This document shows, piece by piece, positions 18,364 through 54,656 of a DNA stretch of 64,000 nt. The position numbers and the translations under genes were made by a program. The stretch lies in the IMG/VR virus record IMGVR_UViG_3300021164_001175, positions 29,136 through 93,135 of that record; one strand, 5' to 3'. The notes beneath the pieces were generated by a model. The model ran no database searches, was not told where the DNA came from, and saw only the letters and a list, made by a program, of their open reading frames with translations. This DNA comes from a virus (Duplodnaviria; Caudoviricetes). Position 1 is the stretch's first letter. Every line of letters starts with the position of its first letter.

Positions 18364-18372
18364 TGTGTGTCT

Positions 18373-18408
18373 ATTGTAAAGTAAGGGTGCAATAGGGTAT
18401 AGCAACTA
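18373..18408 (-). promoter_or_regulatory. putative late promoter TAGTTSC-class (9-mer-N21-TANNNT)
   Basis: TAGTTGCTA-N21-TACAAT; same spacing at four other loci. Confidence 0.65.
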
Positions 18409-23845: not shown

Positions 23846-23863
23846 CCCTATAGGATAGTGCAT

Positions 23864-37500: not shown

Positions 37501-38914
37501 CATTTACGCCGAGTCTTTGACCCTTTTTTACTTCAGGAATTTGTGCTGCTGCATTTGATGTCATAAGACCAATATCAAATCGAAGACCAAATTTTGCATC
37601 TGATATATTTGCATCAGGGTTCGTTATGTATGCCATTGCTTCAACGCCGCTTTGAAGTGGGTTCTCTCGTGGGTCATCTGAAATCATTCCGGTAAAATCA
37701 ATACTGTTGATTTCTTTTGCTACATGAGGGTCTCTGAGATATGTTTCAAGAACACGATTAAGAACACCTCTTTCCGTTGCTAAGACAGTCTTTTCTGTAA
37801 TTCCTTTTTTCTTTAAGAAATCGCGTTCGTCATCACTTAATGCCGCGAACTTGGCTTTGACATTAGAAAGGTCATTGGATATTTCGATATCCCATAGCCC
37901 CATTTCTTTGAGTTTGCGGAATGCCATGTGTAGGTGTAGGTTTTGGGCTCGTTCCTCTGGCGTTACGTCAATGCCAAGTTCTTTTATAAGGTTGTCAACA
38001 GCCCCTTCCATTTCCGCCATGCGAGCTTGACCACGTGTGCGAGCATTCTTGAGCCATCTTGCTTTTGGTCTTGCTAATTCTTCCCTATAGGACCTAGCGT
38101 CAAGTATGAAATTTCCAGATTCATCAAGAAGATGTCTTCTTCCAAATCCAGTTGCTCTCTGATGTTCCCACCAACCACCAAGGGACTCTAAACCTCTTTG
38201 TGCAATTGCCCTAATTTCTCCTGCGGACATAGCGAAGCATGTGCTTCCAAACTTGTCTGTAAATTGATTCGCTTGAGGCGTGCCCGGTGGGCACCGGAAT
38301 TTTCCCAAGTCGTCCACCACCACCTTGAATTTTTTTGCGGCTCTTTGCGCGAGACCACCAGTGGGATTACTTTCACGAATTGAGCGACCAATTGACTTTA
38401 CCGATTCAGCATTCTGTTCTTCAACTTCACGTTTGCTCAGTTTTCTTTTTGGTTCTCCATCTTTATCAACTTCGTATACATCAAGTGATACTTGTGGCTT
38501 TTCCATTTCAAGACGAACTGCCTCTTGAAAATTTGTTGCTGTAGTTGGTGTTGTTTTTTCAACCCAACCAAAGTTTGCATTTTTGTTTAAACCTTTTCTG
38601 ACACTCATCGGTGGGAAAAGGTTGAGTTCCATTCCCGGACCACCCACGGCAGAAGGGTCATATCTCCAACCATCTTGGTTCTTTATTCCGGGGAGTTCTT
38701 GTTCTTGTTCCTTCGGTTGTTTGTCTTGATTTTTTTGACCGACGGTCTTGCCAATTCCCTTAACCATGATTTCATCACTATTGGAGATTGACTTTACTGA
38801 AAGTTCAAGCCCTTGAATAAAATCAGCGACAGCTTCTTCCAACCTATTCTGGTCGTGCCCCATAGCACGCTGAGAGATGATAAACCGATTCATTCGCTGA
38901 TTATTGCTGTCCAT
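34592..38914 (-). CDS. 1,440-aa multidomain head-operon protein (zincin HExxH, ART-like remnant, DUF3626-like)
   Basis: AAHEIGH...IELSAE; RVMLPPG; DRPVSGY..YG..IELILRPEVSGRTAY; RCPPGTPQANQFTD. Confidence 0.75.
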   Translation of the reverse strand: MDSNNQRMNRFIISQRAMGHDQNRLEEAVADFIQGLELSVKSISNSDEIMVKGIGKTVGQKNQDKQPKEQEQELPGIKNQDGWRYDPSAVGGPGMELNLFPPMSVRKGLNKNANFGWVEKTTPTTATNFQEAVRLEMEKPQVSLDVYEVDKDGEPKRKLSKREVEEQNAESVKSIGRSIRESNPTGGLAQRAAKKFKVVVDDLGKFRCPPGTPQANQFTDKFGSTCFAMSAGEIRAIAQRGLESLGGWWEHQRATGFGRRHLLDESGNFILDARSYREELARPKARWLKNARTRGQARMAEMEGAVDNLIKELGIDVTPEERAQNLHLHMAFRKLKEMGLWDIEISNDLSNVKAKFAALSDDERDFLKKKGITEKTVLATERGVLNRVLETYLRDPHVAKEINSIDFTGMISDDPRENPLQSGVEAMAYITNPDANISDAKFGLRFDIGLMTSNAAAQIPEVKKGQRLGVNVEGAKTEEERAAAIADFVASQDMFAGGMAAAIAVDGRVGKGVHTAAHEIGHVIQMMQWKKVMRAKYSNKQLSEMTSQEIMNSMTELGDGIDMADLNVTLKSLEAVAILGGKYPLSEYEKDGITQLWAIELSAELYALRDMDIIQGDDVDAALEWMDRTAKAKDSTHRANTRKRQMALVEKEMSKPLMDGDRPDFPSDEDTPKTPKKPPTKFVGKKDADEFGKKTRRSSIKKLAEEEGGAIERIGDPVDTRVASLISANPAGDILAIHKDNKRLKRMGVIPDKFDINEGSVSEQVEHTLIPTLSALDKTKLPGNLVVRFQPKSTGGEGEILSIPDLRSFQLEHDDLGLPPGTVSIELGTDARGILVPSSPFDSSVDESGKFGRVMLPPGRIVITGTDADGRVTARLIDQETSSQSLQRMIDNWPAKGDSKFEDGILRREKASVQKLVDNHNEKIRASGGETLPDGRSNPILAREIRTNNTDIVDRVRRNGGKPTRPDREYVDGLASNADYASSGFDDALGPVSTPIERRIDRNNLFEKMLSDIQNSNFTENPQIAELIDPSSINEETLAQVEQMVFDLHDTIDRRPRVRTDSESILKDFDIDWADIKPFQPYDGSGRPEVLKESQRREWMDTFFSGSGMARKNAVEYHSRIGIHPDTPDKDRPVSGYVVHKSQRDMTVNALKKKGIVAGDMPFEYESENTPYGNIGADGDIELILRPEVSGRTAYGFGRGPDQQTRPVWMNSDDPDDIVDALLHPRGDNYQTRFANALISTEDNDLGSFLNTSSVRPPKSSADYEAGIDKFNADLSGQQPLGAHIMGGYKKEEISAVVHPWSKIQGSSKDVDISDAIQQEPISEKLSRLGFSPEEIQYFYSLNGNSLGSINTSAMQQLRAYRKSQEISDRYKKMGIPEVQFSHKHGMDMLSPRAYSLSNQDEGDVEDILRTRIQTEIDDELKAALKKIQKTRNELAEIKI

Positions 38915-38927
38915 TGGACTCGCTTAA

Positions 38928-40319
38928 TTAAATGTCTTGTGATTCGTCGCTGAGAAGTTGAAATTCAATAAGTGAGCGCTTGAATTCTTCGTCCTCGATA
39001 TTTGCAGCATCATCTTTCTGGCTCATCACCCAGCTTGAAGGGATTAGTTTTTCAAGACTTAGTGCTTTTGCGCGCTTCATGATATGACGCTTTGTCGCCT
39101 CTTTGTCTTTTGCTCTACCGAACGCTTGAATCGCATTCTTTAAATCGCCTTCGCCCTTGATTGGGTATGAACCATCCGGAAGAGCCAAGCCACTATTGGC
39201 AAGTTCTTCACGACTCTCGTCGGAGAATGCTCTCTTTAGTGCGATTTCAGCCGCTTCAGCCTCAATCTCTTCGGCTTCTTCTTGTTCGTACTTGTCGTAA
39301 CCAAGAACTTCGCCATCAAGAGAAACGAAAACGTCGTAAGACTTACCGTCAAGAGCTTCAATTTCAACCGCATACGAATCAATCCCTTCAAATGAATCCG
39401 GCTCAATACTAATAACTTCACCTTCAATTGACTTTGTGGCAATATCTCCGGCTTCGTCAAATGTTACAAGAAGTAATTGGTCTGACTTGGTTTGAATACT
39501 TCCATAACTGTCGGTCAAGCGATGACCATGAATCTGTCCGGTTGTTCCATTGATGAATACATCAAATGTTTTTCCATCTTTTCTCTGAACACCGACTACA
39601 TACATGTCTGCATTTGCGACGTAACCAGAATCAACGATTTCACCCTTGACTAGAGTCTGTGCATAACCCTCTGCATGCAATAGGGTCATCTGACCCTTTG
39701 TCCCCATGCAACCACCTGGGCACGTAGCGCATGCTGGTGTTCCGCCAGGATACACCTTGCTATCACTTGCGCACTTGTATCCGCCCGCACCTGCATCAAT
39801 GGATTTAATTCCCATCTGTGAAAGACGTGCTTGACGGAATTTTTGCATCATTCCAACTTCTTCGTCTTCAAGCAATTCTTCTTCTTCTTCTTCTGGCTCT
39901 TCCTCGGACTCATCTTCGTCAGCCATTTCGCCTTCAGCATTTTCTTCCGTTGCACGTGCACCCTCTGGCATTGACTCCTCGGTCTCTTCTTCTTCCTCTT
40001 CATAAGGAACTTCAGCAGTCTCGTCATCTTCTGTCATTGCATCTTCCATCGCGCGTGGGCGAGGCTTCTTTTTCTTTGGCTCGTCCATTGAAGCCATCGC
40101 CTCATCGGCGGCCTTCATGTCAAGAGCTTTTTGAAGCAAGTCGTACTCTTCGGCACGAAGAACTTTCATCTCAATTGGGAGTGCACCACATTTACCGCAT
40201 ACTGGCGAGCCAGCACTAAAGCCGCATTCTGCTGAGCCAAGTCCTTTTGCGCACTTAAGGACATTGCCCTCTGCATCAACACTGACACCGGTCACTTGAT
40301 TCGGGCTATTTGAGTCCAT
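38928..40319 (-). CDS. acidic head protein with PepSY-like repeats and an ALPDGSYPI domain (scaffold-like)
   Basis: E-rich tract; GEVISIE..YAVEI..DGKSYDVFVS.DGEVL; ALPDGSYPI..DLKNAIQAFGRAK. Confidence 0.7.
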   Translation of the reverse strand: MDSNSPNQVTGVSVDAEGNVLKCAKGLGSAECGFSAGSPVCGKCGALPIEMKVLRAEEYDLLQKALDMKAADEAMASMDEPKKKKPRPRAMEDAMTEDDETAEVPYEEEEEETEESMPEGARATEENAEGEMADEDESEEEPEEEEEELLEDEEVGMMQKFRQARLSQMGIKSIDAGAGGYKCASDSKVYPGGTPACATCPGGCMGTKGQMTLLHAEGYAQTLVKGEIVDSGYVANADMYVVGVQRKDGKTFDVFINGTTGQIHGHRLTDSYGSIQTKSDQLLLVTFDEAGDIATKSIEGEVISIEPDSFEGIDSYAVEIEALDGKSYDVFVSLDGEVLGYDKYEQEEAEEIEAEAAEIALKRAFSDESREELANSGLALPDGSYPIKGEGDLKNAIQAFGRAKDKEATKRHIMKRAKALSLEKLIPSSWVMSQKDDAANIEDEEFKRSLIEFQLLSDESQDI

Positions 40320-40396: not shown

Positions 40397-43300
40397 CTAT
40401 TCTGAACGGAACTTATCAAATTCTTCTGAACTAATTCCCAGCTTCTCCAGGAGCAGTTGTATCTGTGCTGGACTCATGGAAAGTGGGTTTCTCCCAGTTC
40501 CACTGCCAGAGGAGCGTGGATTGTTTATGAAGTTCTTTGCAGTAGAGATTGATGGGCGACGACCCGTGACTTCGGCAATTGCCTCAACCACTTGTTGTGG
40601 GAACCCTCTTTTGCCTCTAAGTGAGTCAAAAGCCTGATTACTAAAGACATCCGCCAGTGGCATGCTGTCGGTTCTTCTAACAGAAGTAGCAATTTCAGTT
40701 GCATCGCCGTATAGGTCAGAAGCCTTCTTCTTGGACTTCTTTGCCTTTAACAGAGCATCAACCTCTTCTGCGGTGATACCACGGCTCAGAATTCTCTTCC
40801 AAGTCGTTTCACCGAATATGTCAATGTTTTCCTTGATAATCGAATACCGTGAAGCATCCCTGTCAATTCCAACCTCTTCAAGAACTGCACTAGCGTCTAG
40901 GTAATTTCTTGAAACTGTTGACCTTGGGGCGCGGGTACCAGGGACATCTGGAGCCATATCACCAGTATCTGGGATGTTTGCTTCAATGTCTATTGGTTTG
41001 CCAGATTCGTCATAATACGAGAGTGGGTCTTTTCCTACGCCCCATAGATTTCTGTCACCATCAACTTGGATACGAAGCCTGTCAAGAAGGTAGACATCTC
41101 GTGTTCGTGCACCTGGCTTGCGCATCTTTCGCGCCACATCAACTGGCACGCCAAGTTCTGCGGCAAGTTGCTCGTCTGTCATGTTCTGTTTTCCGCCAAA
41201 CCTTCTGGCAGCACGATTAACGATTGGTTCAAATCCCCACGAGCGACCACCAGAACTCTCTTCACCAACGACGATGTCGCTTGGAAGGATGTCAATTGGT
41301 TCGCCTCGTGAACTAAACCCATACTCTGATGCATCTGGTCCGTTACGGCGTTTGCCTGGTCGCTTCTTGGAGCGCAATCTGTCTCCATCAACATAACTCT
41401 GTCTATCTTCAGGGGTCCAATTGGTTTTTGGCACACGTGGACGCTTTTTGTCACCACGGGAGGCAAGACCGCGCGTATTCCTGACGTATTGGTCACCCTG
41501 CCTGCGCAAAGTCATCCTGTTGAGTGCATCCCATTGCTTGTCTGACAGTTCGCCATTTCTGTCATACTGCCCAACGACACTTGTCGTAAACCTATTACCC
41601 ATTCTTCTGGCAATAGCGATAATTTCATTCTTCTCTTCTCGGCTGAGATTCATTCTGCTCGCAAAGCCATCTTCTGGAGATGGTCCTTCTGGCATCATGT
41701 CCTCTTGTTCCATCATGTAGTCTTGGGCGGCATCATAAGCCCAGTCCATTGCATCAAGTTCGTCTGGGTCCATTGAGTCCCCACCAGAAGCAAGACCGTT
41801 TTCATAGACTTGACCGTTTTCGTCAAGTAATGAACCAGTTTGTGGGTGGTCAAATGCTTGAGCCCATACAACCTTGTTGTCGTCACTCAGCATTGAAGGC
41901 TTTAATGATGCTTGGTATGAGGTTTCGCCGAGTTCGTCAGCATAAACATTGTCCCACTGACCAAGAACCCTTGTCTTTCCCTTGTCCTTGCCGCTAGTGA
42001 TGATTTGCTCCGCTCTTACGAAGTATGTATCGCTTCCGCCGTCGTAACCAACAATCACTTGCTGATTTCTATTTACTGGCAGAACCATCTCGTTATTGCG
42101 CTTCTTTGCTCGTGTCCCAGAGATTGCCATGAGATTTCCACGACCGATTTGGGAGAGTGCTGTTCTCATATCAAATTCACTTGGCTCGTATCCACCAGAT
42201 GTCGGCCAGTCCCCACGAGATGCAAGACCTTGAACGGAAACTACTGGGTTTCCAACAACGGCGATTTCCGGTGTTTCAAACTCAGCCTTTTCACCGTTAG
42301 AGAACTTGCTCTTTGCATTAGGTGAAATATCTAGGACATAGTTGACGGCCTTTTGGGCATCGGTCATTGCTTTTTCCAATGCCTCTGGGTCGTCCTTCAA
42401 CTTCTTCAACCAAGATGCGAGGTACGGTCCATGATTCTCTTGAATGTTTGGTTCGATGTTGTGCGAAGCCATGAACATTGCAGATGCAATTTCCGCTACG
42501 AGTTCTTCGTATGCATATTCAGGTGTTCCGAAGGTGCCCATTTGTTCTCTTCCGAGACGACCATTGCCACCAGTCCAGTGCATCAATTCATGTGCAACTG
42601 TTGAGTAGTAACTTCTCGCATCATTGAAGTTCTCAAAGTCTGGAACTTGAATAAAGTCGCCGCTTGGTTGGAAGAATGCCTTATCTCCACCATTTTTAAT
42701 AACAGCAGGAATCTCGGAAATAGTTTTCTCCAAGTCGGCAACTCTTTCTGCTTCTGGGAGAATTTCTTTCTTATCAAAATCATCAGGCATTCCATCAATT
42801 TGCTTAAGGTTGAATACCGTTGCAACCTTGAACATGATTCTTCCGTCAGTGGATGTACCATCGGCTTTTTCTTTGCCTTTAATAAACATCGGAACAAAGA
42901 TTGTCGTTCCCTTTTCGCCCTTGCGAACCTGACCGCCAAGACCCTGCCACTGGTTGTATGTTGCCCACTTGTTTGAATCAAACCCACGAGCATCAGCAAT
43001 TACGGACAGGAAGAACCAGTTTGAACCTGAATACTTTCTTCCAGTCGTGCCGTTTTCTGGCATTCCTGTTCTTCTCCATGGAAGCTTCCACTTACCAAGG
43101 TTTTCAGAATCTTCCAGTGCAGCAATGAGTTGTTTCTGCATTTCTGCAAAAACTTCTTCCTTGGTCTTTCTCTTTACACCGCTCTCTCCTCTTGAAGAAA
43201 ATCCACGAGGGGTCAGTCCAAAGACATCACCATCTGAATATCCTCCAAGAACCGAGAGCGGGTCAACTTTTGGGCGGTCGCCGCCGGTCTTTGGGGTGGA

Positions 43301-46300
43301 AGGATTTGGTTTTAGGCCAACGATTGTTCTGCGCTTTTCTTCAAGCTCAGTTGCTAATGCGGCCATCTCAAAGGCATCCATGTTCTTTGCAAACAGTTTT
43401 TCAAAATCGTCTTCAGATAGACCCAAATCAGCGAGCATTTCTTCAATTTTGTCTTCACTCAAACCTGGATTACTTCTTTCAAACATCTTTCGTGCCGACT
43501 CGTAATAGTCATCCTTGGCTTGCTTGAGGTTTCGTTCAAGGGCAATCAAATTTGCCTTTGCCTCTCCGTCGTAAAGTCTTCCTATTTCTTTGTCAATTTC
43601 TCCCACTGTTGCACCATCACGGTCCATTTGGTTAAAGTATGCGCGATTGTTATCAATCATGTCTTCGGCAACTCTTCTTTTTTGACCTGTTGTCATCTTG
43701 GACCACGGTATGGTATTGATTGATGGCTCATATTTCGCCGAATCATCCCAAGTTCCACCCCCAGCTGGTGGGAGAGCTCTGTCAAGAGCATTGAAGATTG
43801 AAGGATTATCATCAAGCGGTGTGTCAACAGACATGGCAGATTGATAATCTCCGTCTAGTCGTGATGTACTACGTGATGCAAAGCCCTGCCTATCGCTATA
43901 GTCGCCACTTTGTCTAGGTCTTTTCGGTTTATTCCGTCTTATGTTTATTTCACGCTGCAATGCATCAAATAGGAGTTCTTCGCTTCCAACTATGTCGGCT
44001 ATCTCCTCAACGGTGGATGGTGTGTCAAAACTTCCGTCATTTTGTTCATCCAATATTTCAAGTGCTCTATCATAAAGATTGATATAAGGAAGACCTTCCC
44101 CTATTTGCTCCATTGAAAGACCATATTCATCCGAAACGCCCTCTTCGGGGTCAATGCCTTCTGCAATGCTTTCTTCCATATCTCTTATGAATTTGTATCT
44201 AATGAAATCGGCCAGCTCTTCATCGGTTATTTCTTTGTCTGGAGTATAAGAATTTCCTTCTTTGCCCAACCACGCTAGTCTTTGACCAGTAACCCTCTTG
44301 CCAAACTGTTCCTGAACTTCGGGTGCAAAATATTGTTGTCCTCTAAATATTTCTTTAAGGATTGCTTTTTGTTCTTCTCTGTCTCCAGATTCAAGTGCAG
44401 ATTCAAGAGCAGCAAGCCTCTCACCACGTGAAGCGAATCCATCTTCAACCGAATAGTCCATCGGCTCGACATTGTCAAGCAGGAAACCTTCGTCGTCGTA
44501 ATCGCTTGGCTTTCGCTTTGGCTTAGAAGGCTTGGCAAATATTTTTGGACCGTAGAACTCAACCAGTTCGTCAATCCTTTGCTTTCGCTCTTCTGGGTCA
44601 GTGATTTCGGCAAGGGATTCTCTGTCATCAGAATGCATTCTTGAAGGAACAATCCTTTGACCAGTACTGCTCTCGTTGATTGATACACGAGAGGCGAATC
44701 CATCACGACCATTGCGTCGTGCATTCACCTTCTGAATATCACCAGTCGTGTATGCACGCTTGTTATAGTTTGTGGCCTTGCCATTTTCGTCAAGGTAGAA
44801 ACCGTTCTCGTTTGTGCGGTTTGTGATTTTTGGATTTGACCGCTCAGCTGGTTCTCCCATTGAGTAGAAAGCTGACTGAGGAATTGCTTCTTCTCTTCTA
44901 AAGTCAAAGTCATCTCGCACTCGGCGCAATGTTGCACCACGGCTATCTGATGCTTCAAGGTCATCAACTACTGATTGTGGGACATTTTCATAGATGTAGA
45001 ACTCGCCGGTTCCCTTGCCATCACGGCCACGATATTCAACGCGAAGTTCACGCTTATCTGGGTCGTACTGAACTCTGTTAAGTGCGGCGCTAGAGCCAAC
45101 ATCAACGTTTCTGTAACCCATTCCAAGCGACTCTGCTTGCATTTCCATCATTGCGATTTGACGGTCATCGTATGCTCGTGCTTTTGCATCAGCAGTGATT
45201 TCGTCAGCCGATGTTCCGCTTCCTGCATTGATTGCTGAATCTACTGCTCGTGTAAAGTAGCGACTCTGCTCGTCTGGCCCAATTTCGTTCCAATGCGAGT
45301 CAATCTGTGCCTCATATGAACCTTCACCAAGTTCTGCACTTGCATCTGCATCTCTATCGGTTCTGTCTGAGCCACTTGCCCTTCGTACCGACTTGGATGC
45401 CTTGATTTTGTTGATGACTTTGCCCTTTGAACTTGAACTAGCAAGTTCTTGAGCTTCGTCAGAAGTTACGCCTTCATAGATGTAACTTCCACCAGCATTG
45501 CCATCCTTGTCCTTGAAGGTAACAACCAGTTCTTGGCTATTCGGGTCATAGTAAGACTCGTAAAGAGCGGCACTTCTGCGAACATCAATGTCCTGAATTT
45601 TTGAACCACCAGATGCAGAGCCTTTGCCAGAATTTCCTAGTTCTAGGTTTTCCTGCATCCTAGAATAAGACTGCGCCACCTCTAGGCTGTCAAGACCTTC
45701 ATGTCTCATTACGTATTCAATTTTTGACTTTTCACCTGGGACAGGGGTCTCCCTGTATCCAACTGCATAATACGTGTCGCCTAGACCATATTCTTTACCA
45801 ACTTCATACTTGATTCCAGAAGCACCAGTGGTACTGGATTTGTCACCACTAGGACTAGGTTTCCAATTGCTTAGTGACAGCTTCTCCCTTGTTGGAGTAG
45901 AAGCAACTTCTCCACGACCGTTAATTGCATCAATCGTGCTTGAGTTTGTAATCTCAACATCATGATTTCTCTTGACATCATTGATTACTCGACCAATTGA
46001 ACTAGAACCTGCTACTTCGTTGTCAAAGTAATCAGGTGAAACATCGGAGTATGTGTAGTACCTTGCTTCTCCACCAGTTTGACCTGGCTTAAACGCAACA
46101 TGGAGTTCACGAGTTTTTCTGTCATAGTGAACTGCTTCAATTGCGCTTGAGTTTGGAGTCTCGACAGTGTCAAAGCGTGAACTGCCGCGTGATGCGAATC
46201 CACTCGTTGATTTACCACTGCTTGAGAAGAGTCTGTCTTCGGGGTAATCAGCATCGTAACCATCTACGCTTGGAATCTCATCAGTATCGTACTCTCGGTC

Positions 46301-49300
46301 TTTGTAATTATCTCTGGCAACAGATACTTCTCTTGAAACAAGAGCATCCAATAAATCATTGGCTTTTTCGTTTTCGCTTTCTTCACCAAGATTGATTAGG
46401 TCAAGAATCTTTTTCTTCTCATCTTGTGATTCCCACAATGAAGAGCCGTCAATATGCTCAAGATTGTCAATTTCCTCTACTCTTTTGGTGAGTTCGCTTA
46501 GGTCTGATTCAAGACCGCCTTCTCCGTCGTCGCCATAAAGGTTGATTAAATTTGATTCTAGGTCTTGAATTTTTGCCCATGTGTCGCTTGCTTCGTCAAC
46601 TTCGGACATTTTTGCGGTGCGATACTGGCGATTTCTTTCAAGCTTTTCTGTTGCTTCTTCAATTGCTCCATCTAGGCTCTCAAGAAGGTCGATGTCGTCG
46701 TCATCATCTGTTACGTCGTAAATTGTTGTATTGGAATCAATCTTTACGCCATTGGCGTCCGCAATTTCTCTAGCGATTCGACTGCGTGTCTCAATTAACT
46801 CTTTACGTTGTTGAAGCAGTGCGGTATGGCTGTCTTGTAGTCCACGTGAACTGTTGTCGTCTAATGATGGGACATCCAACAAGTCAGACACTTCTTCGTT
46901 GTACTCATCGGTTGATTTACGGCCACCACGTGAAGCAAATCCCTTTGGGCGTCGTTGAAGTTTCTCTACCTCGTCAAGGCTTACCTTGTTGTCGTCAATC
47001 TGAACGGATGACTTACTAAACTCATCTGCGAGTTCTGGGTCATTGTAATATTCAAATGGGTATTCTTCGCTTGCAATTGCAAGGTCCGACTCTTGGTTAA
47101 ATTCTGCTTTTTCATATTGAATTTTATCTAGGCGATTGCCATCTTTGTCGTGTGTGACGGCAATATTAATACTCCCAACCCTGTCAAAGCTGAATGATGG
47201 GGGATATTCATCGTTATCTATAATTTGATATTCTGGTCCATAACCTTGGACGATGACACCCCTTCTTCCATCGGAAAATGTAACCGTATGTCCAATAAAT
47301 TTTGCACCATCTTCGTGAGATTTGAAATCATCAGAGACTGGTTCATCAAAAGTTTGCTGAGGGTCGTTGTTCCTGCTGGTATTAAAATCTTGATACTCTT
47401 CGGCGCCGTATTCACGAATTTTTACTGGCTTAGAAGGCTTCTTGATTGCCTCGTCAATTGCGTCAGAGCCACGTGATGCAAAGCCCATATCACCAGCATC
47501 ACCAGCATCGTTGATGTCGGCAATTCTGTTGTTGACCTCATCCATGAATAGTTCCGGATTTTCGCTCTCCTGAAGTTCCAACCATTTTTCAATAGCTGTT
47601 TCACGGGCTAATTGCCTGTCGTAACCCTCGTCAAGGTATTCTTGGATGCGCTCTTTTTTATCTGGGAGTGCATCAAACATTTCGCCAACAACAGCGTCAT
47701 ACTGGTCTTGATAATCCATGGTGTCATCACCACGAGACCTAAAGCCGCTGCGGTTTTCTTTGTTTACCTGAGCCGTTTCCCATGCATCATAAATGCCACC
47801 AATGGTATCTTCTCCAGCCTCGTTATAGAATTCTTCTCTATCGATTTCATCAAGCTCATACCAGTTGTTAAGGGCATCTTCTGCAGTTGACCTGTCCCAA
47901 CCATATTCATCTTGAAGTTCTTGAACTCGTCGTTTATTAACGCGGTCTTCGTAGTATGCAGATTGAGCATCATCGCTGTAATCACTAATGCTCCGTGATG
48001 CAAAACCACTTCTGCTTTGTGGTTTGTTTTGTTCTCTCTGCAATGTGCCGATTAGCGCATCTGGTTTGTCATCAAATCCAGCTTTACGGACACGGTCGTA
48101 AGGAACATCTTTGAATGTTTCCTTTTTGCCATCTCTGTAGTAAACAGTGAGGTCACCATTTTGTGGGTCGTAATCAATCTGTCTTGCAAGTTTGGAATTT
48201 TTTGGGTCCATCTGCATTGCTACAGCGGTACGTGGCGGTTTCTGTCCTTCTGAAGCGGTTTCTCCGCGTGAACGGAAGCCTCCATCACGCCTAGCTTGCC
48301 TATCTGCTTCAACTTCTGCGTCATACTCTCGGCGCTGACGAGCAGTTACCGGAGGACCCTCACCTGTGAGGTAGGCATCTCTTGCTGCATCATATCCGTC
48401 GTCGCTGTCGTCGCCTTCATCGTCATATGGGCGACCCGAACCACGTGAACCAAATCCGCGCTGACGCTCGTTGTAATTATCCGCCGCTGCATCAAGGTAG
48501 TTGTCGTAGGCAAGAGCCATTGCATACAGCGAATCGCCGTCTGCTTCTTTTAGATACTCGTCATGGATTGCATCATTTTCAATCCAGTAGTCAGCAACTC
48601 TTTCTGCTTCATCCCTATCTGCACCGCTCCCCTTGAGCGCTTCAATTGATTCTTTTCTGAAGTCTGTTGCATATCCGTACTTATCTGGGTCCATTTCAAA
48701 GTCGTTTTGTGCATAATCCGAGTCCCAGTCTCGTGCTCCAGGACGTGGGCTTCCAGGATTGCTTTCATAATATGATTGCTCAATTATGCCTCTCTCGCTC
48801 TCAGAAAGCTCTTCGTATGACGACCACCATTTGCCGAGGTCGTTATTCTTTCCGGGAACATCAAGTCGGTCTCCGCGTGAAGCAAATCCTTCATCACGAT
48901 TATTCCGTTGCATTTCATGGAAATCAATTGCGGCTCCAGTGTAATTGAAGAGCACGCTACCTTTCGGAGTTGCTTCATCTTGGAGTCTTAATGCCTCGTC
49001 TCTATCTGAAGGGTCTGCTTCCAGCCAAGCATCCATGATTTCTGCTGCTTCGTACTCATCAAAGCCAAAATTCTCTTGCAACTCGTCAAACATGTCAGCT
49101 GCTGGACCGAATGCTGATTCAAAATCTGGGTCACCTTCATAGTCGCTACGTGTAGGGGTGAAGCGTGGTCCTTTTGGAGTTGTTTCTCCGCGTGAAGCAA
49201 ATCCGTTACTCCGACCAGATACATAGCTGTTGAGGTTTTTTAGAACATCATTGATTGCATTTCGCTCGTTTGTCGTTGTGTTGTTTCTCGCCTTATAGAG

Positions 49301-52285
49301 TCTGCCAAGTTTCTGAATGGAGGCATCTTCTTCTGGGGTGACTTTCCCATTGCCTTTTCTCACCTTGTCCAAGCCACTCATTGCCTGCCTGTACTCACTT
49401 GATGAGAACTCGTCGGAGAGGAAGTCCCTGTTCCCTCTCTGCATGATTCGTTCGCCTTCATTTGGCATACGTGATGCAAAGCCGTCACGACTACGCATGT
49501 AGTCTTCGTAGTCGGGTTCGTACTTGGAATTTGCCTTTTCAACCATGTAGTCGTATTGGTCGTCTACGAGGTCACTGAAGAAACGCGAAGCTATTTCATC
49601 ACTTGCTACTGCCCTGATGGCATCGTCATCAGACTGGTATCTGTCAAATAAATCTTTAAGTTCAGAATCACTCAGTGGTTCTTTGCTTCGATTATTAAAA
49701 CTTTCCAACTTGTCAAATTCAACTTCACCATCACCGACATGGTCAATTATGTATTCTTCAATAAATGAGTCATCAAGTTCGTCGTCATCTGGTTCAAGAC
49801 CTCTATTGGAACCCCAAAGTCCACTGCCCTCACCGCGCGAAGCAAGACCACGAGCACTGTCACGACCTTGTTCAAGGACTAGGTCCTGCTCATCTGCTGA
49901 GAGCTTGTCAAAGTCATCTTCTGGGAACATTTCACCTTGGCCAGCGGCTTGCTGACGGTCACGCTTTGCCTTCGGAGTGTCAAGGTCTGCTGGATTTACT
50001 AGGTCAGCAAACTCTTTATCAAGTTGACCGTAGAAGCCTTCTTCGTATGATGCAAAAATATCTTCAGCATCTGCTTGAAGTTTTGAATCAGTTGACCAGT
50101 CGCCCTCAGGAAGAAGGTCACCAATTCTGTCGCTCCAAAGATTTTCCCCGCCCCACTCACTGGTTAGTGGACCATTTCCGTCCTGAAGCAAAAATGAAAC
50201 AATTCCATTTTCACGAATGAAGTCTTTATCTTCATCACTTAGATTCTTCAGGTTGTCTGCAAGAATCTGAGCCCTTCCAGATGCAATGTCTGAACCACGA
50301 CGACGCGAAGTATCAATTCTTTCTTGTTGTTCTGGCGTTACATCACCACGACTACCGAATCCACGCTTTGAACGATTTTTGTCGTATTCGGCGAGGAGTT
50401 CTCCATATTTGGGTTTCTCGTAGCGTGGATTGTTGCGACCACTGAAACCATATCCGAGACGAGTGTCTTCTGCAGCAGTTCCTTCTGGCAAGATGTCACG
50501 AACTCCACTGACATCAAATGTTTCTTTGCCAGTTGATTCTGTTCTCTTTGGTGGAACGAAATCTTTTCCAAACTGTTGCTTGTAAGCATCACGACGTGAG
50601 AACTCATGCGAAAGTTTGAAGAGTTCTGCATCTGTCTTTTCTCTGTCTGAACCAGTTTGTCCACGACGAGCAGCAACAAGTTTCTGACCTTCTGCACGGA
50701 GACTATCTTCTGACATGTCCCAGTACTTTGCGAGTCCTTCGTTTTCTGGTCGACGATTAGCAAGAAACGAAATGTCGTCCATTGTTCGTGGTTGCAAATC
50801 TCCGGCAGCCAATGCTTCTTGACGCTCTTGACCAGACAAAAGACTTGGGTCCTTAGTTGGCTTCTTGCCAGTCCTGATTGTCGGCTTGTCAAGTAGTTCA
50901 CTTGAGTTGCGATTCTTTCCACCAATATCTGGAAGATTCATGTCTGGCTTCTTGATAGGAATGTACGGTCTCTGGAATGCAGTACCGTCTTGTGCAATGC
51001 CGTCGCTGTCACCGTCGATTGCAAATGGGTTGAAAGTTGCTGCGAGGGTTCTTAAGTTACCAACTGACTGACCGATTGTTTGACCAATCGCCTTAACTGC
51101 AGTCTGAAGCGCATCAATTGCTTGTGCAGAGATGCTTCCGTTCACAATAATTCCATTGTCTGAATCAGTTGTTGAAAGATTGTGATACTTAAATACTGGT
51201 TGAAGCATGCTCTTGGCTTGCACAATGTGACCCTGAGGGATTTCAATAAGGTGCGCATATGCAGACTTACCAATACCCACTTGACCACCAAGCATTGTGT
51301 TCATTTCATCTTGGTCATCATCTCGGTACGGAATCTGCTGTGGTTGCATTGGAACCATTGATTCATCTGCTGGCTTAACTTCAATCTGTTGTTGAACTGG
51401 TGGCTTGTTTTGATTTCCAGAATAAGCTTCTGGCTTGCCAAACATAAATGTGTTGTAAGCGTCTGGAGTGTGGTAACCAACTCTGTACATAGAAACTTTT
51501 CCGTCAGTTGTTGTTCTACGGAAAACAATGAAACTATCTGTTGCTTCAACAATGTCAACCTTTGAGCCAGTTCTTTCACTAAGCTCTGATTGAATTTTCT
51601 GTGTCTTCTCAGCATCTAATGGTTGTGCAAGACCTTCTGCAAAAATATCAAAAGGCTCGTCTTGCTCTTGTTCCTGCTGCTGTGGTGCTGCAATAACAAT
51701 CATTCTTGGTTGTTGTAGTTGTTCACCCATCATTGACATGCCTGGAATAATTGGCATCATGTGATTCTTTGAATCGCTCTTGACGGAGATTGTTCCAGTC
51801 AATTGATTAGCACCATGAAGAACTGGTGACACTTCGTAGAGCTCTACTTCTCTGAGAACATTTGCTTGTTGTGTCGTATCAAACGCACCATTGATTGTTT
51901 TGTAACCAATAGACCATTCCTGCTCTTCTCCAAAGAATGCAACGCTCGCAAATGCTTCTTTGCCTTTTTCTGACTGGAGGTTAAATTGAACCTTTGCATA
52001 CAAACCGCCAATTCCAGCATTTTTCATTTTTGCTGGGAGACGTGGGTCACCTGGTGGAACTTCGTACATCTCAAGGACTTTTCCAATTGGGTCATTCCAA
52101 CTGTGAGCCCATACAACTCTTGGCTTACGACGGGTGAGGCTCTTGGCAAACGCACCAGTTACAACGATGTCACCAACTGAGTCCTTGTTGCCAATTCCTG
52201 CAACGAAACATTCGACAATTCCTTGCAGTTCGTCAAGAGCGATTGCTCCGCTAGCTGCTGATTTGAATTCAAATTGTTCGTTCAT
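40397..52285 (-). CDS. HK97-type prohead protease fused to a ~3,800-aa GFASRG-punctuated polyprotein (4 KTSC, ArdC, many small acidic modules)
   Basis: WAHSW (His), EWSIGY (Ser), LYEVSPV; lies right after the portal; GGTGG RBS before ATG 52285; 22 linker motifs. Confidence 0.9.
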   Translation of the reverse strand: MNEQFEFKSAASGAIALDELQGIVECFVAGIGNKDSVGDIVVTGAFAKSLTRRKPRVVWAHSWNDPIGKVLEMYEVPPGDPRLPAKMKNAGIGGLYAKVQFNLQSEKGKEAFASVAFFGEEQEWSIGYKTINGAFDTTQQANVLREVELYEVSPVLHGANQLTGTISVKSDSKNHMMPIIPGMSMMGEQLQQPRMIVIAAPQQQEQEQDEPFDIFAEGLAQPLDAEKTQKIQSELSERTGSKVDIVEATDSFIVFRRTTTDGKVSMYRVGYHTPDAYNTFMFGKPEAYSGNQNKPPVQQQIEVKPADESMVPMQPQQIPYRDDDQDEMNTMLGGQVGIGKSAYAHLIEIPQGHIVQAKSMLQPVFKYHNLSTTDSDNGIIVNGSISAQAIDALQTAVKAIGQTIGQSVGNLRTLAATFNPFAIDGDSDGIAQDGTAFQRPYIPIKKPDMNLPDIGGKNRNSSELLDKPTIRTGKKPTKDPSLLSGQERQEALAAGDLQPRTMDDISFLANRRPENEGLAKYWDMSEDSLRAEGQKLVAARRGQTGSDREKTDAELFKLSHEFSRRDAYKQQFGKDFVPPKRTESTGKETFDVSGVRDILPEGTAAEDTRLGYGFSGRNNPRYEKPKYGELLAEYDKNRSKRGFGSRGDVTPEQQERIDTSRRRGSDIASGRAQILADNLKNLSDEDKDFIRENGIVSFLLQDGNGPLTSEWGGENLWSDRIGDLLPEGDWSTDSKLQADAEDIFASYEEGFYGQLDKEFADLVNPADLDTPKAKRDRQQAAGQGEMFPEDDFDKLSADEQDLVLEQGRDSARGLASRGEGSGLWGSNRGLEPDDDELDDSFIEEYIIDHVGDGEVEFDKLESFNNRSKEPLSDSELKDLFDRYQSDDDAIRAVASDEIASRFFSDLVDDQYDYMVEKANSKYEPDYEDYMRSRDGFASRMPNEGERIMQRGNRDFLSDEFSSSEYRQAMSGLDKVRKGNGKVTPEEDASIQKLGRLYKARNNTTTNERNAINDVLKNLNSYVSGRSNGFASRGETTPKGPRFTPTRSDYEGDPDFESAFGPAADMFDELQENFGFDEYEAAEIMDAWLEADPSDRDEALRLQDEATPKGSVLFNYTGAAIDFHEMQRNNRDEGFASRGDRLDVPGKNNDLGKWWSSYEELSESERGIIEQSYYESNPGSPRPGARDWDSDYAQNDFEMDPDKYGYATDFRKESIEALKGSGADRDEAERVADYWIENDAIHDEYLKEADGDSLYAMALAYDNYLDAAADNYNERQRGFGSRGSGRPYDDEGDDSDDGYDAARDAYLTGEGPPVTARQRREYDAEVEADRQARRDGGFRSRGETASEGQKPPRTAVAMQMDPKNSKLARQIDYDPQNGDLTVYYRDGKKETFKDVPYDRVRKAGFDDKPDALIGTLQREQNKPQSRSGFASRSISDYSDDAQSAYYEDRVNKRRVQELQDEYGWDRSTAEDALNNWYELDEIDREEFYNEAGEDTIGGIYDAWETAQVNKENRSGFRSRGDDTMDYQDQYDAVVGEMFDALPDKKERIQEYLDEGYDRQLARETAIEKWLELQESENPELFMDEVNNRIADINDAGDAGDMGFASRGSDAIDEAIKKPSKPVKIREYGAEEYQDFNTSRNNDPQQTFDEPVSDDFKSHEDGAKFIGHTVTFSDGRRGVIVQGYGPEYQIIDNDEYPPSFSFDRVGSINIAVTHDKDGNRLDKIQYEKAEFNQESDLAIASEEYPFEYYNDPELADEFSKSSVQIDDNKVSLDEVEKLQRRPKGFASRGGRKSTDEYNEEVSDLLDVPSLDDNSSRGLQDSHTALLQQRKELIETRSRIAREIADANGVKIDSNTTIYDVTDDDDDIDLLESLDGAIEEATEKLERNRQYRTAKMSEVDEASDTWAKIQDLESNLINLYGDDGEGGLESDLSELTKRVEEIDNLEHIDGSSLWESQDEKKKILDLINLGEESENEKANDLLDALVSREVSVARDNYKDREYDTDEIPSVDGYDADYPEDRLFSSSGKSTSGFASRGSSRFDTVETPNSSAIEAVHYDRKTRELHVAFKPGQTGGEARYYTYSDVSPDYFDNEVAGSSSIGRVINDVKRNHDVEITNSSTIDAINGRGEVASTPTREKLSLSNWKPSPSGDKSSTTGASGIKYEVGKEYGLGDTYYAVGYRETPVPGEKSKIEYVMRHEGLDSLEVAQSYSRMQENLELGNSGKGSASGGSKIQDIDVRRSAALYESYYDPNSQELVVTFKDKDGNAGGSYIYEGVTSDEAQELASSSSKGKVINKIKASKSVRRASGSDRTDRDADASAELGEGSYEAQIDSHWNEIGPDEQSRYFTRAVDSAINAGSGTSADEITADAKARAYDDRQIAMMEMQAESLGMGYRNVDVGSSAALNRVQYDPDKRELRVEYRGRDGKGTGEFYIYENVPQSVVDDLEASDSRGATLRRVRDDFDFRREEAIPQSAFYSMGEPAERSNPKITNRTNENGFYLDENGKATNYNKRAYTTGDIQKVNARRNGRDGFASRVSINESSTGQRIVPSRMHSDDRESLAEITDPEERKQRIDELVEFYGPKIFAKPSKPKRKPSDYDDEGFLLDNVEPMDYSVEDGFASRGERLAALESALESGDREEQKAILKEIFRGQQYFAPEVQEQFGKRVTGQRLAWLGKEGNSYTPDKEITDEELADFIRYKFIRDMEESIAEGIDPEEGVSDEYGLSMEQIGEGLPYINLYDRALEILDEQNDGSFDTPSTVEEIADIVGSEELLFDALQREINIRRNKPKRPRQSGDYSDRQGFASRSTSRLDGDYQSAMSVDTPLDDNPSIFNALDRALPPAGGGTWDDSAKYEPSINTIPWSKMTTGQKRRVAEDMIDNNRAYFNQMDRDGATVGEIDKEIGRLYDGEAKANLIALERNLKQAKDDYYESARKMFERSNPGLSEDKIEEMLADLGLSEDDFEKLFAKNMDAFEMAALATELEEKRRTIVGLKPNPSTPKTGGDRPKVDPLSVLGGYSDGDVFGLTPRGFSSRGESGVKRKTKEEVFAEMQKQLIAALEDSENLGKWKLPWRRTGMPENGTTGRKYSGSNWFFLSVIADARGFDSNKWATYNQWQGLGGQVRKGEKGTTIFVPMFIKGKEKADGTSTDGRIMFKVATVFNLKQIDGMPDDFDKKEILPEAERVADLEKTISEIPAVIKNGGDKAFFQPSGDFIQVPDFENFNDARSYYSTVAHELMHWTGGNGRLGREQMGTFGTPEYAYEELVAEIASAMFMASHNIEPNIQENHGPYLASWLKKLKDDPEALEKAMTDAQKAVNYVLDISPNAKSKFSNGEKAEFETPEIAVVGNPVVSVQGLASRGDWPTSGGYEPSEFDMRTALSQIGRGNLMAISGTRAKKRNNEMVLPVNRNQQVIVGYDGGSDTYFVRAEQIITSGKDKGKTRVLGQWDNVYADELGETSYQASLKPSMLSDDNKVVWAQAFDHPQTGSLLDENGQVYENGLASGGDSMDPDELDAMDWAYDAAQDYMMEQEDMMPEGPSPEDGFASRMNLSREEKNEIIAIARRMGNRFTTSVVGQYDRNGELSDKQWDALNRMTLRRQGDQYVRNTRGLASRGDKKRPRVPKTNWTPEDRQSYVDGDRLRSKKRPGKRRNGPDASEYGFSSRGEPIDILPSDIVVGEESSGGRSWGFEPIVNRAARRFGGKQNMTDEQLAAELGVPVDVARKMRKPGARTRDVYLLDRLRIQVDGDRNLWGVGKDPLSYYDESGKPIDIEANIPDTGDMAPDVPGTRAPRSTVSRNYLDASAVLEEVGIDRDASRYSIIKENIDIFGETTWKRILSRGITAEEVDALLKAKKSKKKASDLYGDATEIATSVRRTDSMPLADVFSNQAFDSLRGKRGFPQQVVEAIAEVTGRRPSISTAKNFINNPRSSGSGTGRNPLSMSPAQIQLLLEKLGISSEEFDKFRSE
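42230..43186 (-). other. ardC: complete ArdC-like antirestriction module (ssDNA-binding N-domain + zincin) inside the polyprotein
   Basis: WKLPW, YSGSN, WATYNQW..GGQVRKGEKG, VFNLKQ, YYSTVAHELMHWTG, YAYEELVAE, YLASWL. Confidence 0.88.
44905..48215 (-). other. four KTSC domains inside the polyprotein
   Basis: SxAxxxxxYDxxxxELxVxF..YxYxxV pattern at ~48060-48215, ~45955-46170, ~45390-45590, ~44905-45110. Confidence 0.82.
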
Positions 52286-52312
52286 TTTCCACCAATCAAA
52301 TAGAGTGTTTAA

Positions 52313-52348
52313 ATCATAAGACACTTATTTGATTGGGGACTGCAACTA
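52313..52348 (-). promoter_or_regulatory. putative late promoter of the protease polyprotein
   Basis: TAGTTGCAG-N21-TATGAT. Confidence 0.65.
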
Positions 52349-52365
52349 ATCGCCAAAAAGTTTAT

Positions 52366-52391
52366 GTTTCACTATTTATATATAGTGAAAC
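52366..52391. terminator. AT-rich inverted repeat at the portal stop
   Basis: GTTTCACTAT...ATAGTGAAAC. Confidence 0.4.
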
Positions 52392-54403
52392 TAGTAAATT
52401 GAATTCCAAGCATCGTTTGTCTCTTCAAAAGCAACTTCGTGCCGAACTTTTCCATGAAGGTTGGCGTACATCTCAATGATTTCCTTCTTCAACGACTCAT
52501 GTCGGGCTTCTTCGCCTGGAGTATTGATTGCATTGATGATTGCATTCTTTACCTGACCAAACATGTCAGAGTTAAGTTGCTTGATGTTTTCAATATGTCG
52601 GTAGACCTTGACATTGATTTCAAGTTCGTTCCATGTTGCATTGGGTTGCTTTACTTCAATGGCATCTTTAACGATTGCTGACAGCACTGGCTTGATGTCT
52701 TCCTCTAATTGTCTGTTCCATACATCTGGACTGAGGATTGATTCGGCTTCAAGAGTTCCAGCAAATAGTGCCTTGCGTGATTTGACTCCATTTGCCTTTT
52801 CCATCACGACTCGTTGCTGTCTTTCCAGAACACGCTCAAGTGAGCGGTCTAGGATTTCGACCCATCTATCCATCGTCCTTGCAGGCTCTTCCGATTTGTA
52901 ACTCATCACCGAACTAGCAGAAGCCATTCCCTCTGGAAGTGGGGCAGTTGCTGTCTCGGGAGCGCCAAGTGGTGGAGACATTTCCCCCGGAGGTGCACCA
53001 GCGCCACTGGTTGCAGCAGCCAAAGCACCAGCCATAGTGTTCGGGTCAAGACCCGATGGTGGAGCACCCTCAATCGGTGGCATACCTGGAGGCATTGCAC
53101 CCTCTGGCCCTGGTGGCATTCCCGGAGCACCAGGTGCGGCACCAGCCATCATTGGTGGCTCTTCCATCTTCTTCTTTGTGTTGGCAATTGGCGTAAGGTT
53201 TGGATTCATTAGTAGTGAGTCAGCTAAGTCTGCATCAACCTCTTTGCGACCGCTCATCATTCGGTATTCGTTAACGCTGATGAGACCCTGCGAGAGTTCG
53301 TCTTTCAAATATCTTTCGCGCTCTTGCTTGTAGAGCATAAGAACTGGAACAAGGCTTGTGTCAAAGTCAATGTAATGAACATCATCAAGTTCGTCAAGGG
53401 CACGAGCAATCGGTTCTAGGTGAGGAAGCATTGTCTCGGTCCAGAACACACGAATTTCTTCGCTTGCATTACTAAAGGTTCTTCCAGCCGCATTGCCGAT
53501 TACCGTCTCTGGGACGCCGAATGCTGCAAGAATTTCTTCTTTCGTAATTTGTCGCATTTGAATATAGGCGGCATCACGTGGGCTTGCGGAAACATCAACA
53601 AAATCAACGCCATCGTCGGCAGACAGGACCGTAGTTCTTCCGGTGGTAGCGAGATTGCCTCTAAACCTGTTCTTTAGTTCTTCCTTGTCGTCATCATCAA
53701 TTTCGCCCTTAACTACAAGAAGGCTTCCTGGTCGACCATCATTCATCAAAAAGTTTCTGTTATATAGTTTTGCAAAGTTTTCAATTTCAATTGCAATACC
53801 GGCTGATTCCATTGGCGTTAACGACAAGTAAGGGTCAAGTGGGTGTGGTCTTCTAACCCAGACAACATCCTCTGGTTTGAGGATTACCGGCTCACCGTTT
53901 GGCATCATTACTTCGTAGCCAGAAACAAACTTCTTAGGGTCCGGGATTGGAGAAGTTGCTTGAGGCGGGAGAAGGTTTAGACCAATAATGTCACCGTTCC
54001 TGCCTCTTACCTTTTCAATGAATGCTCCACGGGTTCCAAGAAGCAACTGTGATGAAAGCCTGTAGCGAAAGATGAACGAGTTTTCACCGATGTTGGATTT
54101 AGTGTTTAATACTTGGAGAAGCGTCGAGTCTTCTGCTTTTCTACCAACAATGATTTCACCGTCCGGTGAGTTGTCTTTACGGAGAATAATTGGGAGTCTT
54201 GCTTGGTTCCCAGCAATTACGTCAATACACCTAGCCACCCATGTGACTCGCTGCATTCCTTCTCTGTAGGCTCGCTCAATATCCCAAGAGTCCTTGTATG
54301 GCTTACCAACAAAGGATGAATCATTGGCTATGGGCGCGCCGGCTCCAATCCCCTTGGAGTTGATATTATTGAGGGCTTTATTTGAGCCTGTGTTCCATGC
54401 CAT
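52391..54403 (-). CDS. HK97-family portal protein
   Basis: WVARCIDVIA, LLLGTRGAFI, NFLMNDGRPG, EILAAFGVP, ISVNEYR; Pro/Gly/Met-rich insertion. Confidence 0.92.
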   Translation of the reverse strand: MAWNTGSNKALNNINSKGIGAGAPIANDSSFVGKPYKDSWDIERAYREGMQRVTWVARCIDVIAGNQARLPIILRKDNSPDGEIIVGRKAEDSTLLQVLNTKSNIGENSFIFRYRLSSQLLLGTRGAFIEKVRGRNGDIIGLNLLPPQATSPIPDPKKFVSGYEVMMPNGEPVILKPEDVVWVRRPHPLDPYLSLTPMESAGIAIEIENFAKLYNRNFLMNDGRPGSLLVVKGEIDDDDKEELKNRFRGNLATTGRTTVLSADDGVDFVDVSASPRDAAYIQMRQITKEEILAAFGVPETVIGNAAGRTFSNASEEIRVFWTETMLPHLEPIARALDELDDVHYIDFDTSLVPVLMLYKQERERYLKDELSQGLISVNEYRMMSGRKEVDADLADSLLMNPNLTPIANTKKKMEEPPMMAGAAPGAPGMPPGPEGAMPPGMPPIEGAPPSGLDPNTMAGALAAATSGAGAPPGEMSPPLGAPETATAPLPEGMASASSVMSYKSEEPARTMDRWVEILDRSLERVLERQQRVVMEKANGVKSRKALFAGTLEAESILSPDVWNRQLEEDIKPVLSAIVKDAIEVKQPNATWNELEINVKVYRHIENIKQLNSDMFGQVKNAIINAINTPGEEARHESLKKEIIEMYANLHGKVRHEVAFEETNDAWNSIY

Positions 54404-54594: not shown

Positions 54595-54656
54595 CGTCCT
54601 ACATTACCCGATTAATGTGTTCTAATCTAGAACAACAATTTTTATTTGGAGATTAC

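Follow-up and report, generated by a model that had tools for sequence, protein, structure and literature searches.

A protease-headed polyprotein punctuated by a repeated peptide in an uncultured freshwater phage, a candidate capsid-loaded cargo chain

The stretch of DNA analysed here (the window; 64,000 nucleotides (nt), positions 29,136 to 93,135 of the IMG/VR record IMGVR_UViG_3300021164_001175, a single 93,135-bp contig of Caudoviricetes DNA with a CheckV completeness of 63%) carries on its minus strand a giant gene, 40397–52285, whose product of 3,962 amino acids (aa) begins with a prohead protease and is then punctuated by a short repeated peptide, typically Gly-Phe-Ala-Ser-Arg-Gly (GFASRG), which we call the tag. 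The comparisons below support the tag as a module boundary, and module shuffling between phages occurs at it. We propose, with somewhat better than even confidence, that the gene encodes a cargo polyprotein that is loaded into the capsid and cut at the tags by its own S78 protease. To the proposal in its broadest form we give an even chance: a lineage of freshwater actinophages would possess a punctuated cargo polyprotein, new to tailed phages, in which the protease would be both processor and carrier, about two dozen swappable effectors would be freed in the head for injection and the cut tag would double as a recombination joint. The cutting, the S78 domain as cutter, the scissile bond, packaging and ejection are the parts that we infer.

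All 22 motif positions listed in a preliminary description of this DNA were recovered, 20 of them matching the strict pattern G[FL][AGSR]SR and two being degenerate. From the N terminus of the giant protein (P0001; its residues are numbered throughout from GTG 52324), and all on the minus strand, the tags are the degenerate GFSGR (50435–50449, residue 626), GFGSRG (50345–50362, residue 655), GLASRG (49832–49849, residue 826), GFASRM (49466–49483, residue 948), GFASRG (49187–49204, residue 1041), GFASRG (48872–48889, residue 1146), GFGSRG (48440–48457, residue 1290), GFRSRG (48263–48280, residue 1349), GFASRS (47990–48007, residue 1440), GFRSRG (47729–47746, residue 1527), GFASRG (47468–47485, residue 1614), GFASRG (46925–46942, residue 1795), GFASRG (46184–46201, residue 2042), GFASRV (44684–44701, residue 2542), GFASRG (44423–44440, residue 2629), GFASRS (43868–43885, residue 2814), GFSSRG (43187–43204, residue 3041), GLASRG (42212–42229, residue 3366), the degenerate GLASGG (41780–41797, residue 3510), which is GFASGG or GFASGA in relatives, GFASRM (41651–41668, residue 3553), GLASRG (41453–41470, residue 3619) and GFSSRG (41303–41320, residue 3669).

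This density is far from what composition alone yields: a looser pattern, G[FL][AGSR]S[RG]x, occurs 21 times, compared with a mean of 0.125 and a maximum of 3 in 2,000 shuffles of the protein. A position matrix built from the sites and run over the whole 93,135-bp genome places the motif in only two open reading frames (ORFs), the giant one and 12214–18405, which encodes a second tagged polyprotein, P0002; the tag is absent from the major capsid protein (MCP), the portal and the proteins p463, p1440 and p666 of this genome. The codons of the tag vary from copy to copy, although TCA-CGY is favoured, and copies agree at 13.9 of 18 nucleotides, compared with 12.7 expected from codon usage. Codon variation with so small an excess of nucleotide identity indicates that the constraint lies chiefly at the peptide level, so the earlier suggestion that selection acts on the peptide is borne out in the main. 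Ribosome skipping of the 2A type and an intein were considered as the nature of the motif and rejected, as it resembles neither; a repeat fold was rejected because the spacing of the tags is irregular (29–500 aa).

Several lines of evidence support the tag as a module boundary. First, tags lie in polar, unstructured sequence. Across 1,434 sites in 122 family proteins, the hydrophobic fraction drops from 0.34 to about 0.2 between positions −8 and +14 of the motif. In an AlphaFold 2 (AF2) model of residues 2990–3720, which has low confidence (mean predicted local distance difference test (pLDDT) 46, alignment of 6 rows) and was used solely to tell coil from structure, six of six tags are in coil between structured blocks, and in a model of residues 1–640 the first tags fall in the disordered tail of the module that follows the protease.

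Second, the intervals between tags hold whole proteins. Cassette c17 (42221–43195, minus strand) is a complete ArdC-type protein by Pfam and PHROG, with an ArdC N-terminal domain (ArdcN, residues 3059–3171) and a zincin metallopeptidase (MPTase-PolyVal, residues 3198–3319; HELMH); it spans positions 6–311 of the 324-position PHROG anti-restriction profile, and its Pfam domains are flanked by a tag 18 aa before and another 47 aa after. The 500-aa cassette c13 (44693–46192, minus strand) holds KTSC domains with no tag between them, KTSC being found by Pfam in three stretches of the chain. In relatives, a whole UvrD helicase (~850 aa) and a whole pentapeptide-repeat domain each occupy one tag-to-tag interval with no internal tag. 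The preliminary observation that the motif interrupts no recognisable domain is thus upheld: tags sit in polar or coil stretches that flank entire proteins, and a short site repeated at the boundaries of independently folding units is the arrangement by which a processed polyprotein is recognised.

Third, cassettes are gained and lost as units. In 29 relatives each cassette is either covered to ~100% or absent. Cassette c04 is missing in the closest relatives, yet it recurs with 89% identity in a protein with a head module only 59% identical to the one here. Where blocks of homology end, a tag is found within 10 aa in 43% of cases; random positions give 12%, and at most 16% in any of 200 trials. 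Two IMG/VR relatives carry an additional cassette of ~100 aa, tagged on both sides, where the chain described here has the single tag at 41453. Comparison of orthologues, which the preliminary description had put forward as a check, therefore gives whole-unit presence or absence with breakpoints enriched at tags.

Fourth, module shuffling at the tag can be read directly from lake DNA. A Logan contig from another lake contains a well-supported, in-frame joint from 46942 to 48440, that is, from the last base of one tag (residue 1795) to the first base of another (residue 1290), which skips 1,497 nt (499 codons). Two further lake-contig joints begin exactly at tag edges, one a 15-nt deletion at the tag of residue 948 and the other at the tag of residue 1146. 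In total, 4 of the 12 ends of well-supported joints lie within tag DNA (P ~5e-4).

The payload of the chain comprises KTSC, ArdC-N and MPTase domains, and such unrelated conflict-type domains in one chain, taken together with those of relatives, are what defines a polyvalent protein, a class to which the earlier reading had already likened it. PHROGs and Pfam give names only to ArdC, KTSC, MPTase and the protease, and a protein atlas search with cassettes c18 and c22 found nothing. That the spacers are unrelated to one another, as had been stated, is right only in part: c05, c09 and c10 form a paralogous set, as do the three zincin modules of P0002, and KTSC occurs more than once. The three cassettes c05, c09 and c10 (within 47468–49204, minus strand) are small and very acidic (87–105 aa, 25–29% Asp and Glu) and share a helix pattern containing W-x-E-x-D. 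More generally, most cassettes in residues 658–2044 are strongly acidic, with net charges down to −38, and have no known-family match.

The N-terminal domain, previously named a prohead protease from its sequence, is recognised by Pfam as an HK97-type Peptidase_S78 domain at residues 37–186 (51767–52216, minus strand; PF04586, E 2.8e-9, 37.8 bits against a cut-off of 21), and its PHROG assignment is head maturation protease. The frame is open on the minus strand from 40397 to GTG 52324 (3,975 codons counted from GTG). The true start is probably ATG 52285, which is favoured because GGTGGA precedes it and because five close relatives (P0123, P0011, P0127, P0141 and P0146) begin at that residue; this start, giving 3,962 aa, coincides with the gene end first reported. 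Residues H74 and S138 (in WSIGY) are invariant among 38–53 relatives. An AF2 model of the domain has block-mean pLDDT values of ~63–87, and the folds closest to it are those of herpesvirus assemblins and T4 gp21, though all matches are weak (probability ≤0.99, best E 5.6e-3, none with E ≤ 0.001); by sequence, the domain has no match in the PDB. A conserved catalytic His and Ser in an assemblin-like fold are the features of an S78 peptidase, and the gene lies in the head module, directly downstream of the portal, where a maturation protease is expected. In the 93-kb record (63% complete) it is the one S78 domain (n = 1), and a ClpP-type protease was found nowhere in that record. On these grounds the predicted S78 domain is probably the maturation protease of the phage.

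Behind the protease lies a conserved head module (residues ~190–620, ~430 residues; 50465–51757, minus strand), found throughout the family, which consists of a disordered linker, small domains at 230–300 and 357–418 and a helical block at 490–590. The AF2 model of residues 1–640 (mean pLDDT 64) is confident for these small domains and the helical block and for the protease at 32–168. The module includes a segment, FNPxAxDGDxDGxxQDxTxFxRP (50939–51037, minus strand), that is conserved family-wide and recurs at the N terminus of P0002. Within it, D437, G442 and P453 are invariant in the family, AF2 predicts disorder, and P0002 and the giant polyprotein of a relative, G004, are 51% identical over 37 aa. 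This DGDxDG segment is a candidate for a common address tag of both polyproteins. A complex prediction of protease residues 25–200 (with an alignment) and a 37-residue linker peptide (residues 1026–1062) gave an ipSAE of 0.01, which speaks neither in favour of cleavage of the linker by this domain nor against it.

P0002 (12214–18363, minus strand; ORF 12214–18405, 2,063 codons) carries five perfect GFASRG tags, at 17113–17130, 16099–16116, 14872–14889, 14503–14520 and 13348–13365 (minus strand), and the genome-wide motif search that the preliminary description had proposed confines the motif to this protein and the giant ORF. Its layout is an N-terminal DGDGDG segment, three paralogous HExxH zincin modules, a WYL domain with a DEDDh exonuclease and a DUF5872-like end. 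Just downstream of it (10819–11346, minus strand) there is a gene encoding DUF6321 (PF19846) on its own. As this domain is also listed within two protease polyproteins, P0065 and P0089, modules seem to pass between the chains and stand-alone genes.

The head-module protein p1440 (34592–38914, minus strand), which has a HEIGH zincin motif and is conserved across clades, offers a further case. Its orthologue in a phage of the LSSG clade (L014:21254–28888, 2,544 aa) contains an insert of ~900 aa with four local tags, [LF]SSGR, and thereby represents a third kind of carrier protein able to receive tagged cassettes. A conserved HE[IL]xH is common to p1440, its counterpart in G004 (G004_1383) and the LSSG-clade protein (L014_p2544); HExxH occurs three times in P0002 and three times in its G004 orthologue.

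Polyproteins of this design are widespread among uncultured phages. A word-indexed search returned 243 proteins of 2.2–5.7 thousand residues with the same N-terminal module, an exhaustive search gave 372 clusters at E<1e-30, with the protease N-terminal in all of the best 150 listed, and protease-headed giants occupy at least 572 loci in IMG/VR. Among 50,697 GenBank phage records, nothing exceeds 42% identity to the protease, and neither the DNA of the gene nor the DGDxDG segment has a match. Synteny is conserved across the family (terminase, portal, polyprotein, a PepSY-like acidic protein and a large zincin protein), and the payloads vary: ArdC/MPTase, KTSC, UvrD helicases, pentapeptide repeats, sigma-70 region 4, many helix-turn-helix (HTH) domains, and exonuclease with WYL.

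Nearly every member has its own over-represented short motif composed of a hydrophobic residue, a small residue and Ser, a local dialect of the tag; examples are GFASRG, DGFAS, LGSR, GFSS[ST], RGM[AS]S, GLAS[ST]S, GMRSR and [RK]LSSG[RK]. Dialects cluster on the protease tree, with 26 changes compared with 77 for shuffled labels, a clustering that kinship alone would also give. In three of three genomes checked, a separate protein uses the local dialect: P0002 here, the p1440 orthologue in the LSSG clade and the P0002 orthologue in G004 (LGSR). In G004, a complete relative of 140.6 kb, LGSR occurs only in the two orthologous giants, with 17 and 4 copies (ORFs of at least 150 codons), and its putative tape measure (1,637 aa, glycine zipper) lacks an LGSR tag. 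Ahead of the orthologous ArdC cassette, the LSSG clade has TRLSSGK where the present phage has PRGFSSRGE.

Taken together, these observations suggest the following scheme. The conserved front end, that is, the protease and the head module with its DGDxDG segment, would bring the chain into the procapsid; as the sole maturation-type protease in the record is the N terminus of the polyprotein, this N terminus must reach the procapsid. There the assemblin-like serine protease would become active after assembly, cut its own chain at the G-[FL]-x-S-R-[G] tags and cut the protease-less P0002 in trans. Approximately 22 + 6 proteins would be released, including ArdC, KTSC proteins, zincins, the WYL–exonuclease and many small acidic modules, and the freed proteins would remain with the DNA and pass with it into the next host. 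By analogy with herpesvirus assemblins the scissile bond may be A|S; cleavage after Ser or after Arg is equally possible. Because one short linker closes every module, the DNA encoding it could double as a joint for module swaps between phages.

Some observations weigh against this scheme. Among the best 150 cluster representatives, the protease is mostly 65–97% identical across dialect clades, with ~100 invariant columns. A near-invariant protease across dialects fits a broad specificity (hydrophobic, small, Ser) with homogenised linkers better than it fits a co-evolving specificity, and the argument from dialects is thereby weakened. Dialects that drift while the protease hardly changes would also suit a motif that is never cleaved, a flexible linker or a docking peptide (for DNA, the capsid wall or tail threading) homogenised by recombination, in which case the chain would act as one beads-on-a-string protein, much as the N4 vRNAP stays uncut. 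The slight excess of nucleotide identity between copies and the recombination joints that lie exactly in linker DNA are compatible with such homogenisation, and some polyvalent proteins are delivered unprocessed (PMC5512222). However, five or six residues are held in 25 copies while synonymous sites vary freely, Ser and the hydrophobic residue two positions earlier are kept in all dialects, a sequence that a pure spacer does not need, and, P0002 apart, no other protein of the genome bears the tag. We consider an uncut linker unlikely.

Further difficulties concern the cutter. The presumed maturation junction of the MCP reads AAAAAG-[YA]-[SA]-[IV], followed after ~8 residues by SIGEAF, and contains no tag. 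Co-variation of this junction with the tag dialect was looked for and rejected, as the junction is alike in all clades; if the S78 protease cuts both the MCP and the tags, it must accept two kinds of site. Moreover, zincins occur elsewhere in every genome examined, in p1440-like and P0002-like proteins. A phage zincin metallopeptidase, whether the MPTase of the ArdC cassette, the p1440-type HExxH protein or the zincin modules of P0002, might therefore cut the tags, leaving the S78 protease only to mature the capsid and carry the cargo. This would account for an MCP junction unlike the tag, and MPTase-mediated processing has been argued for polyvalent proteins (PMC5512222). Yet 39 of 90 tag-rich polyproteins have no HExxH zincin in cis, and S78 is the sole protease common to all 90; the zincin modules are themselves bounded by tags like other cargo, and a capsid location for any zincin would be hypothetical. 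Cutting by a zincin is, in our judgement, the likeliest of the alternatives and is nevertheless improbable.

The route into the capsid raises a third set of difficulties for the capsid-loaded, S78-cut chain. P0002 is placed outside the head operon, among replication-type genes. The acidic, scaffold-like protein p463 (38928–40319, minus strand) ends in a tail (residues 362–430, LPDGSYPI...GRAKDK) that is 59% identical over 69 residues to the C-terminal tail of the 501-aa maturation protease of the Gordonia phage ChisanaKitsune, so that a tail found on the protease of cultured relatives sits here on a separate protein, which clouds how the chain reaches the capsid. An ancestral gene for protease, acidic region and tail seems to have been split, with cargo inserted behind its protease part. 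In addition, packing a 440-kDa chain into a capsid in many copies would be a physical challenge. Alternatively, the tags might be cut outside the capsid, either as a cytoplasmic expression strategy like that of RNA viruses, yielding equimolar, unpackaged late proteins, or after intact ejection, by a host or co-ejected protease in the next host; the location of P0002, the placement of the tail on p463 and a capsid-loading signal that is hypothetical for the chain lean in that direction. Against this, ArdC, a DNA-mimic-like pentapeptide domain, helicases and sigma or HTH modules suit the start of infection over its late stage, the gene is placed between portal and scaffold genes, and HK97-type proteases act after assembly. 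We regard cutting outside the capsid as the least probable of the alternatives.

The source of the DNA points to an uncultured freshwater (lake) phage of Actinobacteria. The genome's DNA is found almost exclusively in lake and freshwater metagenomes, and the nearest capsid protein and protease are those of Gordonia phages (MCP ~46% identity, protease 38–42%). Two WhiB-family genes, both over the Pfam cut-off, indicate an actinobacterial host; one is at 7457–7678 on the plus strand (G000:C1:36592–36813 in the record) and the other outside the window (G000:C1:7525–7716). In a lake metatranscriptome (run X19), eight short contigs (172–281 nt) are identical to parts of the polyprotein gene (40397–52324), a hint of its transcription; as DNA carry-over is possible in RNA libraries, we do not take them as proof.

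The head operon runs on the minus strand in the order portal (52391–54403, directly upstream of the polyprotein gene), giant ORF, the acidic p463 of 463 aa, the HEIGH zincin protein p1440 of 1,440 aa, several small ORFs, p666 (666 aa) and the HK97-fold MCP (29055–30368), which has an N-terminal delta-like region of ~95 aa. The large terminase gene (54615–55961, plus strand) is divergent from it. Between the portal stop and the polyprotein start lies a perfect hairpin, TTTCACTAT-ATATA-AATAGTGAAA (52360–52390), which looks like a terminator or attenuator within the operon. The region between the capsid gene and P0002 includes, all on the minus strand, genes for an Asp/Asn beta-hydroxylase-like protein (28434–28982), a staphylococcal-nuclease homologue (27989–28384), a DUF932 protein (22823–23863) and a TauD-type dioxygenase (18709–19500). 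Tail genes were not seen in this region, and a tape measure is not present in the 63%-complete record.

If the proposal is right, tailed phages would have a polyprotein strategy of their own, in the style of eukaryotic viruses and previously undescribed in this group, in which one late gene loads dozens of anti-host proteins and a built-in joint swaps single modules. Splitting at the tag would then be a simple rule for finding new anti-defence proteins in hundreds of giant ORFs; of the cassettes in this chain, most match no known family. The address module, tag and protease would constitute a natural, portable system for loading foreign proteins into capsids. The herpesvirus protease–scaffold precursor, the T4 internal proteins and the polyvalent proteins would be joined in one principle.

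In a full-text literature search, no account was found of a tailed-phage polyprotein that is headed by a protease and punctuated by a motif. The earlier statement that the arrangement is undescribed in tailed phages accordingly holds for the searchable literature, with the proviso that polyvalent proteins with assemblin-like peptidases are already known (PMC5512222). Polyvalent proteins were defined by Iyer, Burroughs, Anand, de Souza and Aravind in 2017, who proposed processing by the MPTase and found assemblin-like peptidases in a few of them, always C-terminal, with no repeated linker motif (PMC5512222). The present chain resembles them in its giant size and many domains, in a gene context that is late or structural, in combining ArdC-N, MPTase and other conflict-type domains, and in its predicted delivery with the DNA and processing to individual effectors. 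It differs in that the maturation protease is N-terminal, one short peptide separates ~22 modules and the same punctuation occurs in another protein of the genome.

The proteases of the Gordonia phages ChisanaKitsune (gp30), GMA6 and DalanDe belong to the nearest cultured relatives, with the protease-domain and MCP identities given above. Those proteins have 501 aa (protease, acidic region and C-terminal tail), whereas here ~3,300 residues of cargo follow the protease module and the tail is on p463; the head-region proteins gp19–gp31 of ChisanaKitsune contain no tag-like motif.

In T4, gp21 trims internal proteins. The T4 proteins IPI–III and Alt, and the inner-body proteins of phiKZ and SPN3US, are anti-host proteins that are loaded in the procapsid, trimmed at a short consensus by the prohead protease and ejected with the DNA, as we propose for the cassettes here. 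Each of those proteins comes from a gene of its own and has a single N-terminal propeptide, which an S77 protease cuts after Glu; in the present phage, one chain starts with an S78 protease and bears the tag Gly-Phe-Ala-Ser-Arg-Gly. The tag is likewise not a T4-type capsid-targeting sequence, an N-terminal propeptide of ~10 aa that ends in L/I-x-E and is cut by the S77 protease gp21: the tags are internal and differ in sequence, and the protease is of the S78 family. Finally, in herpesviruses pUL26 begins with an assemblin that, once inside the procapsid, cleaves the precursor to which it belongs at (V/L/I)-x-A|S. Like pUL26, the giant protein has a predicted assemblin-fold serine protease at the N terminus of a longer precursor, and assemblins are the best, although weak, matches to its fold; unlike pUL26, which has two sites and the scaffold as its only passenger, it carries ~22 candidate sites and unrelated passengers.

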